DNA of 64,000 nt from a virus (IMGVR_UViG_3300023245_000013); one strand, 5' to 3'; positions 28,560 to 38,882 are shown, counted from the first letter of the stretch. Translations and numbers: made by a program. The notes: a model not told the origin generated them from the sequence alone.

Positions 28560-28742
28560 AATGTATGTTTTGTGCGATTACTCCAATAAATAGTTCATAA
28601 CATTAACTTAACATTGGAAACACAAATTTAACATAATAAAAAACAAACGCAAAGTAAAATGCTTTTTTCTGTATCTTTGGTAGCTAAACATGGGAATCAC
28701 GAAAAGCATAGACTTTAAAATTTAACGCTTAATAAGTATTTT

Positions 28743-31176: not shown

Positions 31177-33504
31177 ATGGATGAGTTATTAGCAAAAAGT
31201 ACTGGCGAAACCCTGATTGAGCACAGTCGAAAGGTTGCTGAGGTTGCGGAATATATTGCCGACTCAGTTATAGTTACCTCAGATACAGAAAAAAAACATT
31301 TTATATCAGTTATCCGCAAAGCGGCGCTTCTTCATGATATTGGAAAAGCCGAAACCGAGTTTCAAACTTTACTCCGAAACTCTTTAAATGGTAAATCCAC
31401 TAAAACAAAGAAAAAAGACATTATTTTTTCGCACAATGAAGTGGGATGGGCATTTGTAAGAATGTACATCAGCTTTGACTCAGAGGAGCTAAGACAAGTT
31501 GCTGAAGCAGTATACTGGCATCACGGCATTAACAATGTAATGGGCAAGCACACAGATGCGTCTATTCTTGAGTGGGTTCGGAAGAAGAAAGATAATTCTA
31601 TCGATAGAATGATTGAATTCGTCGAAGAATTATTTCCTGGCCAAGTCCTTGATAGGCCAAGAATAGCTGAAACATCAAGCCCTCATTACTATATTAGAGA
31701 TTTTAACGAGACGAGCGACCTCAACGTTGACAACACGATTATTCGCATGTGCGTGGTAAGAGCTGACCACTTAGTTAGTGAATTAGGAGATTTTACAGTT
31801 GATGAAATTAAAAAAACTATAAATGAACGACTGATTCAACAACACCGTTACGCTTTTACTAAATGCCCATATCCTGGACATGAAAAAAGATGGACACAAC
31901 AAGTTGCTTTAGCATCTAGGACGACCTCGTTTAAGACTGTTCAAATCAACGCCCCTGCTGGATACGGAAAAACACTTCTAGGTTTACTTTGGAGCACTGT
32001 CAACAATAAACGGCTTATTTGGGTGTGTCCAAGAAATGCTGTGGCACAATCAGTGTACCACAACATCTTAAGAGAGCTTAAAAATGCAGGAATTGAAACT
32101 TCAGTAGAATTATATTACGCTGGAAAACAACAGGCCTCAAATTCAGATTTAGGAATAAAGTTTTCAAGCGATATCATTGTAACCAACGTAGATAACTTTT
32201 TACGTCCGACAAAAGAGCATTGTAACGATATTGATTTATTAATGGTATCCGATGCAGATGTTGTATTTGATGAGTATCATGAGCTAGTGTCGGACGGGGC
32301 TTTACTGGCTGGTTTTATAAATCTAATGAAGGTAAGACATCAGATGACAAACGGACGCTCTTTACTGCTGTCCGCAACCCCACTTGATTTATCAGTTTAT
32401 TGGGATTCATTTGACAACTCAACAGCCCATTTGCCTGGAAAATTTGAACATGCTCCTGCTGTCCACAATAAATCATACAAACTCACTACAAAAGAGGGGC
32501 GTTCTAGAATATCTGAAAGTAAAAAAAGCCCTGTTCTTTTTATCTCTAATTCTATAGTTGAGTGTCAAAGAAATAAGCACAAACACAATGAAGATACTAT
32601 TTTGTTTCATGGAAAATTTGAGGACGACGACAATCAAGCGCGATTAAGCGTTATTCTTCAAAACTATGGAAAGCAATCCGACAGAAATATTGAAAAAGAA
32701 CACGTAATAGCGAGCCCAATAGCACAGGCATCTTTAGATGTTTCTTTTAGGCATTTGATTGAAAGTTGCCTGTCTCCAGAAGCTACTCTTCAAAGAGTAG
32801 GCCGTGTCGACAGGTGGGGAGATTATGATGACCAGTCTGAAATTCTAACATATCGAATCCCTTCAGATAATTCTGGACGAAGTGAGAATAGAGCCCGCGA
32901 AACAATGTACTCACGAGAACTGTCTGACTTATGGTTTAATTTTCTAACACAAAGTCAAGGGGAAACAACTTTAGATAACCTATATTCTTTGTATAATAAA
33001 CATTGTAAAGAAAATGAAGCCTTAAGAAGAATCTGGTTAAACACAAAATATCGACAAAGCCGCATGGATTTACATGAGAAAATTTATCCTAATAGGTTAA
33101 CGATTAAAAGTGAAAACTCGGAAGTCCATAAAATACAAGAAACTAGCTATAGAAGCAAAGGAAATGAAATCTTTTTTACTGCTAAAAAATGGGCAAAAAA
33201 AGAATGGACACAGCCTAAATCAACTCCTATTTATGATTCTATACCCGAAGACTTCCATGAAGACTCCAACGCACTAGCAAAAGTATTTAAGATAATTAAA
33301 CATCTTAACGATGAGCCAGATTGCGCTTTTGATTACACTAGATTTTTAAAAGTTCCAAAGCATAGCACAAATCTTGAATTATTGCGTATAATGGCGAAAT
33401 ACAAATCAATGCCGTATCCGAGGATGGATATGGAATATCATGACATTTACGGATATATTAAAAAAACTTTACTGGAAGAGTTTGACCAGCCAATTTACGA
33501 GTAA
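31177..33504 (+). CDS. cas3: Cas3 HD nuclease-helicase
   Basis: HD domain (EHS, LLHDIGK, HNE, WHHG, ADH), Walker A APAGYGKT, VFDEYH, LSAT, FHGKF, QASLDV, QRVGRVDR; next to a CRISPR array. Confidence 0.92.
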   Translation: MDELLAKSTGETLIEHSRKVAEVAEYIADSVIVTSDTEKKHFISVIRKAALLHDIGKAETEFQTLLRNSLNGKSTKTKKKDIIFSHNEVGWAFVRMYISFDSEELRQVAEAVYWHHGINNVMGKHTDASILEWVRKKKDNSIDRMIEFVEELFPGQVLDRPRIAETSSPHYYIRDFNETSDLNVDNTIIRMCVVRADHLVSELGDFTVDEIKKTINERLIQQHRYAFTKCPYPGHEKRWTQQVALASRTTSFKTVQINAPAGYGKTLLGLLWSTVNNKRLIWVCPRNAVAQSVYHNILRELKNAGIETSVELYYAGKQQASNSDLGIKFSSDIIVTNVDNFLRPTKEHCNDIDLLMVSDADVVFDEYHELVSDGALLAGFINLMKVRHQMTNGRSLLLSATPLDLSVYWDSFDNSTAHLPGKFEHAPAVHNKSYKLTTKEGRSRISESKKSPVLFISNSIVECQRNKHKHNEDTILFHGKFEDDDNQARLSVILQNYGKQSDRNIEKEHVIASPIAQASLDVSFRHLIESCLSPEATLQRVGRVDRWGDYDDQSEILTYRIPSDNSGRSENRARETMYSRELSDLWFNFLTQSQGETTLDNLYSLYNKHCKENEALRRIWLNTKYRQSRMDLHEKIYPNRLTIKSENSEVHKIQETSYRSKGNEIFFTAKKWAKKEWTQPKSTPIYDSIPEDFHEDSNALAKVFKIIKHLNDEPDCAFDYTRFLKVPKHSTNLELLRIMAKYKSMPYPRMDMEYHDIYGYIKKTLLEEFDQPIYE

Positions 33505-33546: not shown

Positions 33547-34629
33547 ATGAGCAAAGTAAAGTCAATTCTTTTTAAAATTGAAATTGAAGGCAATGGCGTT
33601 GTTAATTACGATAGCAATGAGCAACGGTTCCATATTGGAGAAAAATTCCCTTTCTTAAAATCATACCATAGCAACGTAATGTATGCAAAGAGAAACATTT
33701 ACAACGATGGAAAAGAGCCTCGTTACAAATTAGTTATTTCGCCTACCTGCATGAAGCATGCGATGTATGATAAAGTGTCTCAAACACCAAAGCTTACACA
33801 CAATAAAGATTTACTTTATGCAAACCTTGCCCATCCAGAAAGCATTCTTAATGGGCACTTGCATGCCATTAAAAACGATACGTTAAAAAGAAAAGGAGCC
33901 ATTACACTAGTAGCTGCCGAACAAACGTGCGATGCTCTTTCGCGTCTCGAATTCCATTCAAAGTCTGGTGAGAAAATCAGCTATGAAGCAGACGAAGAAA
34001 AAAGTGATAATTCTATCTACAAAAAAGAAACAATTGGGAAGATTAAGTATTCATCTCAAGGTGCTATAAACCTGAAAGAGCTTCAGTTTTACTCTTGTGA
34101 CGAAATCATGGGACGTTATGGTTTTAATCCCGACCATTTTGATTTATTCAAAAAGTACGCCGACATTCACTTTGGCTCATTTGATAATGAGCTTGGATTT
34201 TTCCAAATGAGAGGAAGTTCTGTAAACATTGCTGAGCGTGGATTCAAATTCACAGATGACCAGGTTCGTTTATTAGTTTCTGTATTTTTAGAAAAGCTTC
34301 TTACGTTGGACATCAGTCGAAGCAGTGCTTATGCACGCAAAGAGAAGCTGATGGTGAAACTGGTTTCCAATCCTTTGATTGACAGGTTTAACAGCGAAGA
34401 GGGTTGGGTCGAAATCAATTCAATAGAAAATATTCAAGCTCTGCAGTATGAAGTGTTTGAAGCATATACGGAAGATGTTACTGGAGATGCAAAAAAACTT
34501 CATGAAGAATTAAAGAAGTACGCGGAAGAAGAACGAGCAACTTTAAAAAAGAATAGCGTGGAAAAGAAAGCCAAAGCCGCAAAGCAAAAAGCAGAGAAAG
34601 TAAAGAAAACCGAAACCACCCCAGCATGA
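33547..34629 (+). CDS. cas7: Cas7 backbone subunit, Cas7fv (type I-F2)-like
   Basis: KSILFKIEIEGNGVVN, VISPTCMKH, KRKG, SIYKKETIG..Y...GAINLKELQFYSCD, ERGFKFTDDQV align with recalled Shewanella Cas7fv blocks. Confidence 0.75.
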   Translation: MSKVKSILFKIEIEGNGVVNYDSNEQRFHIGEKFPFLKSYHSNVMYAKRNIYNDGKEPRYKLVISPTCMKHAMYDKVSQTPKLTHNKDLLYANLAHPESILNGHLHAIKNDTLKRKGAITLVAAEQTCDALSRLEFHSKSGEKISYEADEEKSDNSIYKKETIGKIKYSSQGAINLKELQFYSCDEIMGRYGFNPDHFDLFKKYADIHFGSFDNELGFFQMRGSSVNIAERGFKFTDDQVRLLVSVFLEKLLTLDISRSSAYARKEKLMVKLVSNPLIDRFNSEEGWVEINSIENIQALQYEVFEAYTEDVTGDAKKLHEELKKYAEEERATLKKNSVEKKAKAAKQKAEKVKKTETTPA

Positions 34630-35507
34630 AAGAATTTATGGTTTTGAAGTTTAAAGATGCAGTTTTGTTTCGTAACCATAAAGACACGAAAGATAAATTG
34701 TTTCTTGGAAATAAAGACGCAGGTGAGATTCGAAAGGGGCTCCCTCAATTTGAGTCCTACTTAACACATCATCAGATTTCAAATGTCTTGCACGTGCTTT
34801 TTAATGAAAGACCAGTCCCTTTTTTTGGGGCCTGTGTCTATCAGAAGCAGGATAGATTGATTGAGAAGGCAAAAAACAGCTTCCTAAAGATTGAAGTGCC
34901 CACTTGGGTTACTAAAAAAGGGGATGTTCGAGAAATTAAAGAGATATGCCGCACAAGGAAAGCTTTTTGGAACTCAAACGCCAAAATAACAAACCTCACT
35001 TGGGATTTGATTGAAGCCTACCTAAAAGAGCATTATGGTGATTTCATCACAATGCTCATAGAGGCAACGGGCCACTCAAATATTAGAAAAGTTCCAGTAG
35101 AAGATGTGCCTGATATTTTTAAGCAATCTTTAAACTCAGCCTCTAAACAAGCTTTGCTCTCTCATTTTAGAGAACGTAAAGTTGGAAAAACGGGTGTCGT
35201 TAACTGGCTGAGAAATAAGACTCCTACTGATAAAAACGACCCTATGGAGATGGCTAAGGACTCTATCGCAAAAGGACTTATGCTGGTTGTTCCCAATGGC
35301 ATAGATAAAACGATTCGCTTGAGCGGAACCCTTATTGTGCCGCTTGATGAAGAAGACAAAGAAGTCCTTGAAAACTCAGCTGGTGTGGCAACTATATTGG
35401 ATGGAGGCTTGGTTTGGATTGAAAGAGTGGTATCGGGAAACAGGCTAAGCATTGAGGGTTATGATAGAGTAGGAGATATATCCACTAAACTTACAATAGA
35501 GTCATGA
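34626..35507 (+). CDS. cas5: Cas5-like subunit, Cas5fv-like
   Basis: Lies between cas7 and cas6; THHQISNVLHVL and RLSGTLIV...ENSAGV..LDGGLVWI resemble recalled Cas5fv. Confidence 0.6.
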   Translation: MKEFMVLKFKDAVLFRNHKDTKDKLFLGNKDAGEIRKGLPQFESYLTHHQISNVLHVLFNERPVPFFGACVYQKQDRLIEKAKNSFLKIEVPTWVTKKGDVREIKEICRTRKAFWNSNAKITNLTWDLIEAYLKEHYGDFITMLIEATGHSNIRKVPVEDVPDIFKQSLNSASKQALLSHFRERKVGKTGVVNWLRNKTPTDKNDPMEMAKDSIAKGLMLVVPNGIDKTIRLSGTLIVPLDEEDKEVLENSAGVATILDGGLVWIERVVSGNRLSIEGYDRVGDISTKLTIES

Positions 35508-36220
35508 GAATACAGTTAAAATTTAGCTCCGCAAAGGAGTTGGTTCCAAATAACCTTAAGCACGTTGTGAGTTACATTCATAAATGCTTAGGAAAAGATA
35601 ATCTCTATCACAATCAACCTTCTAACTATGTTATCTCTAGGATGATTGGAGGAACGATTACAGAAGGCGGAACATCCATTGAGTACGCTCATGGAGGCAG
35701 TTTGTTTATATCCTCTGGAGACGAGAGCTTTTTAAATAAACTTCTCGCAGGAGCAGGAGCAAATAAAGATTTTGGATTTGGAATGAAACTGACGGGCATT
35801 GAGTTCATCCAAGAAGACTTGTATGATGGTTTTACTGTTTTTAAAACCACTGAAACTGGCATTTTGCTAAAGAAAAAAAATGGAGGCCGTTATGAATTTC
35901 ACACCCTAAATGATGATGGGTTTGAAGAGGAGTTGTCTGAACAAACAAAAAGACGTTTGTCAAACATTGACAACACTTTAAAATTTGACGGCTTTAGAAT
36001 TGAAGTTCAGAAATCAAACCACAATAAGGTTAGAGATATTTTGATGAGTTCTTCTGGAGCCCCAAGTAAAACCAGTGTGAACAAAGCAAATGTATGCAGC
36101 GTTGTTGTACATTGCAACAAAAAGATTGCTCAAGCTATTCACGACTATGGTTTGGGACAATCTACAGGAATAGGGTTTGGAATGGTTATGGAGATTACAA
36201 ACTCAAAACTCTACATCTGA
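35504..36220 (+). CDS. cas6: Cas6 endoribonuclease
   Basis: G-rich C-terminal loop YGLGQSTGIGFG; YIHKCLG..N.YH resembles Bacteroidota Cas6. Confidence 0.85.
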   Translation: MRIQLKFSSAKELVPNNLKHVVSYIHKCLGKDNLYHNQPSNYVISRMIGGTITEGGTSIEYAHGGSLFISSGDESFLNKLLAGAGANKDFGFGMKLTGIEFIQEDLYDGFTVFKTTETGILLKKKNGGRYEFHTLNDDGFEEELSEQTKRRLSNIDNTLKFDGFRIEVQKSNHNKVRDILMSSSGAPSKTSVNKANVCSVVVHCNKKIAQAIHDYGLGQSTGIGFGMVMEITNSKLYI

Positions 36221-36306
36221 CTCCTTGTGCAAGCGCTCTTTGACGTCTTTTTTCCATCCAGTACATGTGGTTGTTGCTTGTTTATTAGCGCATTAGCCAC
36301 AGGTAC

Positions 36307-38318
36307 CCTGTTTATCATCTCATTCTGCAAGGGAATCACAACTCTTAGAATCAAGTTCGCCAACTTCAAACACCTGTTTATCATCTCATTCTGCAAGGGA
36401 ATCACAACGTGAACCTTTGATAATTAAAGCTTTGTGCACCTGTTTATCATCTCATTCTGCAAGGGAATCACAACATGCGCGGGTTATTTGGGTTGAGTGG
36501 TCCACCTGTTTATCATCTCATTCTGCAAGGGAATCACAACTTGGTTTGTTTTTTGCATTGTTTAAATAAACCTGTTTATCATCTCATTCTGCAAGGGAAT
36601 CACAACCTTTAGTCACAGCACCCAACATGAAATTGACCTGTTTATCATCTCATTCTGCAAGGGAATCACAACTTTAATGCGTTTATCATGAATTGGACTG
36701 CACCTGTTTATCATCTCATTCTGCAAGGGAATCACAACTGTATGTCTTTTTGGGTCAAGTTGAAGTAGCCTGTTTATCATCTCATTCTGCAAGGGAATCA
36801 CAACAGCGCAATGATATTTTGAATGCATACCGTCCCTGTTTATCATCTCATTCTGCAAGGGAATCACAACGATTGGTCTTGAAGACTAAGATTTAATCTA
36901 CCTGTTTATCATCTCATTCTGCAAGGGAATCACAACAAAAGGAACGTACTAAAGGAATTCGATTCCCCTGTTTATCATCTCATTCTGCAAGGGAATCACA
37001 ACTCGATTAGCGGAATTAGTTCCAAAAGCTTCCCTGTTTATCATCTCATTCTGCAAGGGAATCACAACAGACAAAAACCACCTCGAAACGAAGGTGAACC
37101 TGTTTATCATCTCATTCTGCAAGGGAATCACAACTACTCTCTTGCTTCCATTCGATGTTGCTTTGCCTGTTTATCATCTCATTCTGCAAGGGAATCACAA
37201 CTAATAGCTACACGCCCTTCTTATCCTTTGTCCTGTTTATCATCTCATTCTGCAAGGGAATCACAACTATATCTGCTTGCAAGCTCCCGACCTTTGCCTT
37301 GTTTATCATCTCATTCTGCAAGGGAATCACAACTCTTCCTCAAATCGGTATTCATTATAGTCTCCTGTTTATCATCTCATTCTGCAAGGGAATCACAACT
37401 GAACAGCAAAATTATTCAAGGCGATTGCCCCTGTTTATCATCTCATTCTGCAAGGGAATCACAACATAAAGGCTTTCTGATGTATCAATTCCCTCCTGTT
37501 TATCATCTCATTCTGCAAGGGAATCACAACATGGCAAGCAAATATGTTTCTGTTTTGGTACCTGTTTATCATCTCATTCTGCAAGGGAATCACAACACCA
37601 TCTTGGTAATTCTTTATTTGGCTGTGCCTGTTTATCATCTCATTCTGCAAGGGAATCACAACTGTTGGGTGCTGTGGCTAATCGTAATCCGCCTGTTTAT
37701 CATCTCATTCTGCAAGGGAATCACAACTACCTGCCATCTGTTTGAAATATTTTATCTCCTGTTTAAAACGGAATTTCTGCTGATTATTTTTTAGTTTAAG
37801 AAGGATGTCTTCGATTTGCTTTATATCTCTGAAATTCTTTGACTTTTGACAGCAGATTTTGGTGATTTCAGCAAGTGCAAGCCCTTTCAATGTGTTCTCT
37901 GTGTTTACAGCTGTTAAAAGATAATTTAGACGGTCGATTTCATTTTCCATTGTTGTTGTTTAATCTGAAATAGGCTGAAATTTATTCGAGATAAATTTTG
38001 TTTAGAGAATAATGCTCACCTGTTTATCATCTCATTCTGCAAGGGAATCACAACGGGATGCACGGGGCGCATTCAACTTTTAAACCTGTTTATCATCTCA
38101 TTCTGCAAGGGAATCACAACTTCGCCTAAGGTGGTTATTCCATCGTTAGACCTGTTTATCATCTCATTCTGCAAGGGAATCACAACAGCTTGTAGGTATT
38201 TGAAGTTGCTCCCTCCCCTGTTTATCATCTCATCCTGTAAGGGAATCACAACATTTTGCACTTCTTGGTTTGACATCATACCCCTGTTTATCACCTCATC
38301 CTGTAAAGGAATAATTTA
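36307..38318. CRISPR. CRISPR array: 27 repeats of 36 nt (CCTGTTTATCATCTCATTCTGCAAGGGAATCACAAC) plus one partial; spacers 29-31 nt
   Basis: 22 repeats 36307-37727, partial repeat 37758-37765, insertion, then 5 repeats 38019-38318 of which the last two are degenerate; transcription direction unresolved. Confidence 0.97.
37705..37950 (-). CDS. small ORF inserted in the CRISPR array
   Basis: ATG preceded by A-rich ATTAAACAACAACA; 81 aa, runs through a spacer into a repeat. Confidence 0.5.
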   Translation of the reverse strand: MENEIDRLNYLLTAVNTENTLKGLALAEITKICCQKSKNFRDIKQIEDILLKLKNNQQKFRFKQEIKYFKQMAGSCDSLAE

Positions 38319-38676: not shown

Positions 38677-38762
38677 GGAAGGTACCTCGCAAGTGGTGTG
38701 GAACAGGGCTTGAACCCCTGGGTGTCGTTTGCTCGGCAGGGGTTCGAACCCTCTATCTTCCT
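38677..38762 (+). tRNA. tRNA-Ser(UGA)
   Basis: CAGGG-CTTGAAC-CCCTG, long variable arm. Confidence 0.85.
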
Positions 38763-38794
38763 CAATACAGTTCTTTGACATGTTGGGTTTTTAT

Positions 38795-38882
38795 GGAAGT
38801 GACGCGAATGTTGTCATTGTCGCACCAGTCTTGAAAACTGGCTCACTTAATTGTGACGAGGGTTGGATTCCCTTCGCTTCCT
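38795..38882 (+). tRNA. tRNA-Ser(UGA)
   Basis: CCAGT-CTTGAAA-ACTGG, long variable arm. Confidence 0.85.

Follow-up and report, generated by a model that had tools for sequence, protein, structure and literature searches.

The window analysed here is a 64,000-nt (64-kb) stretch read from the minus strand of a 141-kb IMG/VR virus record, which is estimated to be about 64% complete. It carries a compact cas operon followed directly by a CRISPR array, and the array is interrupted near its distal end by a piece of unrelated DNA. The genes of the operon are the following.

31177 to 33504, plus strand: cas3, an HD nuclease and helicase with no Cas2 fusion (Pfam Cas3_HD, DEAD and Cas3-like_C_2; PADLOC Cas3fv, 9.9e-66).
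33547 to 34629, plus strand: Cas7fv-like backbone subunit (PF28157; PADLOC Cas7fv, 1.1e-11; NCBIfam cas_Cas7fv, 7e-13, below the curated cut-off).
34626 to 35507, plus strand: 293-aa protein at the Cas5fv position, its place in the operon being kept in all relatives.
35504 to 36220, plus strand: cas6, Cas6b-like and not Cas6f (PF01881; PADLOC Cas6b, 8.1e-31; TIGR01877, above its cut-off).

These genes make up the minimal type I system, carried by the phage, to which the array belongs: Cas3, a Cas7fv-like backbone, a probable Cas5 and a Cas6b-like Cas6. The probable Cas5 is the 293-aa protein, for which no Pfam, PADLOC or NCBIfam family match was obtained. Neither cas8 nor cas11 was found within the operon, and Cas1 (PF01867) was not found in the 141-kb record, at its estimated completeness of about 64%. 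The hallmarks of subtype I-Fv (I-F2), namely Cas6f, a Cas2-3 fusion, Cas1 and 28-nt repeats, are all missing from the locus, where a Cas6b-like Cas6, a free Cas3 and 36-nt repeats are found instead; the Cas7fv models match at 1e-11 to 7e-13, yet under the NCBIfam cut-off, and the Cas5 position is left without a match.

The same order of cas3, cas7fv-like gene, unnamed gene and cas6 was observed on other phage-like contigs, with Cas6 proteins that are 36-73% identical (69-73% in the L009 and L010 lineages) and with 36-nt repeats ending in GGAATCACAAC. Throughout the family represented by loci L014 to L020 the operon is devoid of cas1, cas2, cas4 and cas8, and the number of spacers per array varies between one (L020) and more than 25. 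The repeat of the window's own array, exact or degenerate, was absent from other viral contigs. The arrays of the relatives end in repeats cut after 21-29 nt with unrelated DNA beyond, so truncated repeats at junctions are normal in this family. In the comparison of arrays that the earlier note on this DNA had proposed, those of the relatives proved regular and those of the closest relatives held no unit of the kind described below; the contig of the closest relative ends at its first repeat.

The array and the features lying within and beside it are listed here.

36221 to 36306, plus strand: array leader of 86 nt between cas6 and the first repeat, with a core, CTCTTTGACGT, common to the relatives L009 and L010.
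36307 to 37727, plus strand: array part A, 22 full repeats and 21 spacers (29-31 nt).
37692 to 37727, plus strand: repeat 22.
37728 to 37757, plus strand: spacer 22, 30 nt, without a complete repeat on its 3' side.
37758 to 37765, plus strand: repeat nucleotides 1-8, CCTGTTTA, interpretable as a repeat cut short or as one copy of an 8-nt duplication.
37766 to 38018, unstranded: insert of 253 nt with 31.6% GC (genome, 38.7%), single copy in the record.
37705 to 37950, minus strand: 81-aa orphan ORF, with ATG at the 37950 end and TGA inside repeat 22.
37966 to 37974, minus strand: CCTATTTCA, a one-mismatch copy of a promoter-like motif, 23 nt before the ATG of the ORF.
38019 to 38318, plus strand: array part B, 4 full repeats, 4 spacers and a degenerate terminal repeat.

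As a whole, the array is composed of 36-nt repeats and 29-31-nt spacers and spans positions 36307 to 38318. Its distal end is degenerate, with two mismatches in the repeat at 38217 and only 27/36 identical positions at 38283-38318; the leader end therefore adjoins cas6, and the plus strand is the one on which the array is read. The leaders of this array (36232-36250) and of the related loci L009 (10740-10760) and L010 (2140-2165) have the core CTCTTTGACGT in common, followed by a T run. The word TCTTTGAC of the leader is present also in the insert (37836) and at 38772, and no extended motif around it was found genome-wide.

Several of the spacers show features of their own. Spacers 5 (36607-36636) and 21 (37663-37691) are reverse complements over 19 nt with one mismatch, and hence two guides stem from one target region, one from each strand. 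Spacer 12 (37069-37098), read as its reverse complement, forms a good intrinsic-terminator-like hairpin with a T run, and this guide was probably taken from a terminator of its target. Downstream of the array, two long-arm tRNA-like sequences (38677-38761 and 38795-38881) lie upstream of two tRNA-Ser genes; they gave weak matches to the tRNA-Sec model (28.7 and 35 bits, below gathering) and no ARAGORN call.

Past repeat 22, a normal 30-nt spacer is succeeded by CCTGTTTA, by 253 nt of unrelated sequence and finally by a full repeat at 38019-38054, and the exact coordinates at which the earlier note had placed this start, break and restart were reproduced. The probability that an 8-mer equal to the repeat start would occur by chance exactly one spacer length past a repeat is about 1.5e-5, and CCTGTTTA is therefore regarded as the remnant or the duplicate of a repeat. 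When the 30 nt after the 8-mer were aligned to repeat positions 9-36, no residual likeness to the repeat was detected in the insert, the score being below the mean of shuffles and of other insert windows, which indicates a clean breakpoint and not decay. A degenerate repeat was likewise ruled out as the origin of the insert's start, given that the likeness stops at repeat nucleotide 8. The likening of the flanking 8-nt copy to a target-site duplication stands as regards the copy itself; as regards its origin, a truncated repeat beside a full repeat explains CCTGTTTA equally well.

The interruption is a reproducible feature of the population from which the record derives. It was recovered with identical structure in every contig reaching it, from several samples (more than 20 independently assembled contigs), and the only contig to break off earlier still has the insert's first 2 nt at its end. 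The exact 81-aa ORF is on record in 28-30 contigs, and five loci fetched from different samples carry an identical array and insert at 99.95-100% identity. Look-up by means of a neighbouring ORF of the array, which was able to return insert-free alleles, gave no locus without the 81-aa ORF. CRISPR arrays are hard to assemble, and a chimeric join at the 8-nt overlap would be one form of the assembly artefact against which the earlier note had cautioned; however, the same junctions occur with unique spacers alongside in more than 20 contigs belonging to separate assemblies of different samples, and the probability of an artefact is consequently next to nil.

Since the population is nearly clonal, fixation of the insert tells little about selection, either way, and since the array is identical in all samples it is considered static. 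A C/T polymorphism in spacer 8 (36805-36834), for which the locus L008 and the JGI contig L012 carry AGCGTAATG..., distinguishes some samples from others and is one of very few differences in the otherwise clonal population. The longest contig on record with the exact 81-aa ORF has 446,956 bases against the 141 kb of the window's record; the phage genome may be far larger than this record, or the long contig may be a chimera.

The minus-strand ORF of 81 aa that the earlier note had described as running through the spacer into the previous repeat was confirmed (37950..37705, TGA in repeat 22). About 61 of its codons are derived from the insert, and the last 19 or so from the partial repeat, spacer 22 and repeat 22. 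Its frame is the only open one among the six frames of the insert, and openness by itself is not significant, as 64 codons in 253 nt are equalled by 9.75% of shuffles (p about 0.1). The codon-usage log-odds of the ORF exceed those of composition-matched shuffles (p 0.015; p 0.006 among stop-free shuffles); within the distribution of real gene windows they reach the 19th percentile, and 98% of off-frame windows score lower. The genes of this phage have leaders free of Shine-Dalgarno sequences with an A-rich stretch at about -10 to -13, and the leader of the ORF is alike, so that the A-rich start context deemed plausible by the earlier note corresponds to a genome-wide pattern.

Upstream regions of the phage are 14-fold enriched in a promoter-like motif consisting of (C)CTATTTAT and then a GGAAA-like sequence, with a T-rich stretch before it (consensus CCTATTTAT). 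Thirteen perfect cores are located 22-34 nt before ORFs of 89-930 aa, and many of the phage genes bearing the motif are small (89-118 aa). The motif is probably a phage-specific promoter, perhaps of a late type. Examples of it can be seen at window positions 28593 and 15204 (minus strand). The site upstream of the 81-aa ORF, CCTATTTCA, attains a PWM score of 6.74 bits, which places it at rank 101 among the 282,038 positions scored in the genome; a site this good lies 20-27 nt upstream of no more than 0.5% of ATGs genome-wide. It is weaker than all 13 training sites (6.7 vs 11.4-21.4 bits) and alters an otherwise invariant A of CTATTTA.

Codon usage, the phage-type leader and the promoter-like motif agree with one another in presenting the insert as coding-like, in line with its first description as a protein-coding insert. 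Most likely, it is genuine phage-type DNA which comprises the upstream region and the first 61 or so codons of a small gene. The insert provides neither a stop nor a terminator of its own for the ORF, and the AF2 single-sequence model of the product (four helices, pLDDT 57) has its lowest confidence in the array-encoded tail; the missing stop together with this poorly modelled tail suggests a truncated gene.

Extensive searches were carried out for homologues of the ORF. No homologue was found in Pfam, PHROGs, PADLOC, NCBIfam or PDB sequences, the best PHROG match having an E-value of 0.088 and no assigned function. Only the ORF itself was returned by a word-based search of 5.8 billion clustered proteins and by an exhaustive phmmer search over 1.84 billion representative proteins. 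Back-translated six-frame scans of genome and viral collections gave nothing, and the ESM Atlas gave no usable match. The role of regulator, anti-CRISPR or Cas11-like protein that had been suggested for the ORF is thus unsupported by any match in Pfam, PHROGs, PADLOC, NCBIfam or PDB, and the outcome of the homology check, an ORF without homologues, is among those that the earlier note itself had named as speaking against its reading.

At the nucleotide level, the insert had no match in phage records and no second copy in the 141-kb record, and only low-complexity A-rich matches were seen against the loci of relatives. With respect to structured RNA, neither strand folds beyond its shuffles (z +0.69 and +1.59), and Rfam returned only sub-threshold noise. 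Nothing convincing was found in the insert in the way of terminators, sigma-70 promoters or Bacteroidota-type promoters. Three further origins were examined and rejected. The insert has no significant similarity to the leader or the trailer of this array or of those of the relatives, which dismisses a second leader. Repeats located at 21-26 kb have no counterpart at the insert ends, which dismisses an integron-like cassette. Recombination between a spacer and its target is dismissed because the 8-nt repeat start separates spacer 22 from the insert, which is hence not contiguous with the spacer; no protospacer was found either.

Considering the above, the interruption is most likely a fixed rearrangement scar and not a new CRISPR component. 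We hold it to be rather probable, with appreciable room for doubt, that a single illegitimate event, be it an insertion or a deletion, left behind an orphan gene which lacks its 3' end and lies antisense to the array. This event would have joined 253 bp of phage-type DNA to an internal repeat, the piece comprising about 68 nt of upstream sequence with the promoter-like motif, an A-rich leader, the ATG and the first 61 or so codons. Two routes could be visualized. The fragment may have been captured at an 8-nt staggered break at the repeat start, whereby CCTGTTTA would have been duplicated. Alternatively, an ancestral arrangement of array, gene and array may have suffered a deletion that began at nucleotide 9 of the last repeat of the upstream array and reached into the 3' part of a neighbouring minus-strand gene, with the second array lying beyond it. 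Both routes would give the exact structure observed, and the data fit either; the deletion route would explain the 3' truncation directly, and it suits the family habit of terminal repeats that are cut after 21-29 nt and continue into unrelated DNA. By either route the gene would have lost its own end, and its frame would now run by chance to the TGA in repeat 22.

Neither a sequence from which the fragment could derive nor an ancestral arrangement was found, and because the contig of the closest relative ends in its first repeat, a relative with the order array, gene, array was not recovered. Weighing against the scar, the promoter-like motif, the leader and the codon usage are just as much to be expected of a small gene that is intact and functional, and fixation in all samples is compatible with selection, though the population is nearly clonal. 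The insignificance of the open frame by itself and the weakness of the promoter-like site likewise count against it.

The gene-like signals and the fixation also underlie the likeliest rival. Phage morons are independent promoter-gene units inserted between phage genes, and the insert resembles them in its self-contained gene start, its phage promoter-like motif, its unusual site and its orientation opposite to the surroundings. Judged by its signals, it could accordingly be read as a functional unit of this type, an intact and expressed small gene (9.5 kDa, basic and helical) under its own phage promoter, whose protein or antisense transcript would act in infection, for instance by timing or damping the phage's own crRNA. 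A motif at canonical spacing, a phage-type leader, gene-like codon usage, fixation in all samples and the comparably small size of many motif-bearing genes (89-118 aa) are in keeping with such a role. Unlike a moron, however, the insert has no stop or terminator of its own, its frame ends in a CRISPR repeat, and no homologue was found among 1.84 billion representatives or in any family library. Around 19 of the 81 residues are furnished by the partial repeat, spacer and repeat, exactly where model confidence is lowest; fixation is uninformative in a clonal population; and the arrays of the closest relatives hold no such unit. On balance, we regard a functional moron-like gene as rather unlikely.

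The remaining candidates concern the way in which the DNA arrived. An exact 8-nt direct duplication surrounds the insert, and several IS families commonly duplicate 8 bp, so a MITE that entered the repeat with an 8-bp target-site duplication would be conceivable. Mobile elements that target CRISPR repeats do exist (PMC11837452), and interruption of arrays has been described for IS elements, prophages and Tn7-like transposons that target repeats (PMC11837452; 10.1101/2020.10.09.333658). As in these cases, the array of the present locus contains foreign DNA that breaks it in or at a repeat and is flanked by a short direct duplication. It differs in that the foreign DNA measures 253 nt, encodes no transposase or integrase and has no inverted repeats at its ends (the best pair, 14 nt at 79%, is subterminal); it also differs in being a single copy in the 141-kb record, with no similar DNA in phage records or related loci, and in that the interrupted array is phage-borne and without adaptation genes. 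A MITE is therefore judged very unlikely, and the case departs from known interrupted arrays in that the fragment is small, non-autonomous and single-copy and the array is carried by a phage.

The aberrant long-fragment integration by Cas1-Cas2 that the earlier note had put forward would act here at an internal repeat, and is of still smaller probability: the break does fall exactly at a repeat boundary, where integrases attack, and host Cas1-Cas2 could act in trans, but no Cas1 was found in the record (about 64% complete) or in any related locus, the array is static and identical in all samples, the 253 nt are far from the 29-31-nt ruler, and 8/36 nt are duplicated in place of a whole repeat. 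Finally, in I-F loci a crRNA-like RNA represses the protein toxin CrePA (10.1101/2024.01.05.574328), and the window likewise shows a small gene beside repeat-like, degenerate sequence inside a type I locus, raising the thought of a CreTA/CrePA-like addiction module whose toxin gene is silenced by a crRNA of the array. When the spacers were compared with positions 37758-38018 on both strands, their complementarity was at background (at most 17/30 overall and 9 of the first 12), by which this notion is largely refuted. A crRNA-promoter complementarity is thereby lacking. There is no pseudo-repeat pair, the 8-nt remnant showing no further repeat likeness; no KilAC or other toxin domain was found, and the gene sits within the array and not between cas genes. 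An addiction module is accordingly considered extremely improbable.

To return to the rearrangement scar, its consequences for the guides can be deduced from the way in which Cas6 systems work. Since Cas6 would cut only full repeats, the transcript should be cleaved in repeats 22 and 23, and spacer 22 should be carried on the intervening product, some 327 nt long and not the usual 66 nt. Such a spacer is probably a poor or dead guide, and the other 25 guides (21 before and 4 after) should be unaffected. The Cascade of Shewanella putrefaciens I-Fv (I-F2) accepts crRNAs of adjustable length, the number of Cas7fv subunits following that length (PMC4937334), and hence the 291-nt inter-repeat RNA could here be coated or trimmed. 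The two systems appear alike in having a Cas7fv-like backbone, and no gene for a large or small subunit was found in the phage operon. They are unlike in that the engineered extensions in Shewanella were small compared with 291 nt, and in that the phage system employs a Cas6b-like Cas6, 36-nt repeats, a free Cas3 and no Cas1. Whether coated or trimmed, the long spacer-22 RNA is unlikely to serve as a normal guide.

If the promoter-like motif is active, antisense transcripts would extend into the array over spacers 22 to about 17. Weak terminator-like hairpins are present on the minus strand at 37433-37417 and 37097-37078. The possibility that the phage maintains the whole as an antisense unit, with a phage promoter directed against the array, a small orphan protein and an antisense RNA over the guides, appears distinctly improbable. 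Were it true, the phage could, at a given point in the infection, lower or remodel the set of crRNAs that it produces, and an active unit would constitute a previously unreported mode of control by a phage over the CRISPR system that it carries.

As a scar, the interruption is of little weight in itself and documents the decay or rearrangement of a static, Cas1-less phage array. The probable disablement of spacer 22 would be useful to know when phage targets are deduced from the array, and the locus offers a natural test case in which a minimal Cas7fv-type Cascade faces a 291-nt inter-repeat RNA. Two by-products of the analysis are possibly more useful, namely the phage promoter-like motif and the repeats with a built-in hairpin that were encountered in a relative.

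The latter touch on another form of split repeat. Type VI-B (Cas13b) arrays contain long direct repeats, in which fragments of the repeat flank a short intervening repeat and which are processed to a 118-nt crRNA (Smargon et al., 10.1101/092577). The interruption in the window shares with them a repeat divided by intervening sequence and a position towards the leader-distal end of an array of 36-nt repeats and 30-nt spacers; it does not match them, as the repeat portion on one side is reduced to 8 nt and the other side begins with a complete repeat. The repeats of a related phage do resemble them: in the array of JGI Ga0102945 (L013), the two repeats at 363-419 and 711-767 are 57 nt long and not 36, owing to a 21-nt hairpin-forming insertion (CTCCTC / GAGGAG stem) after repeat position 21, within the loop of the presumed Cas6 hairpin.
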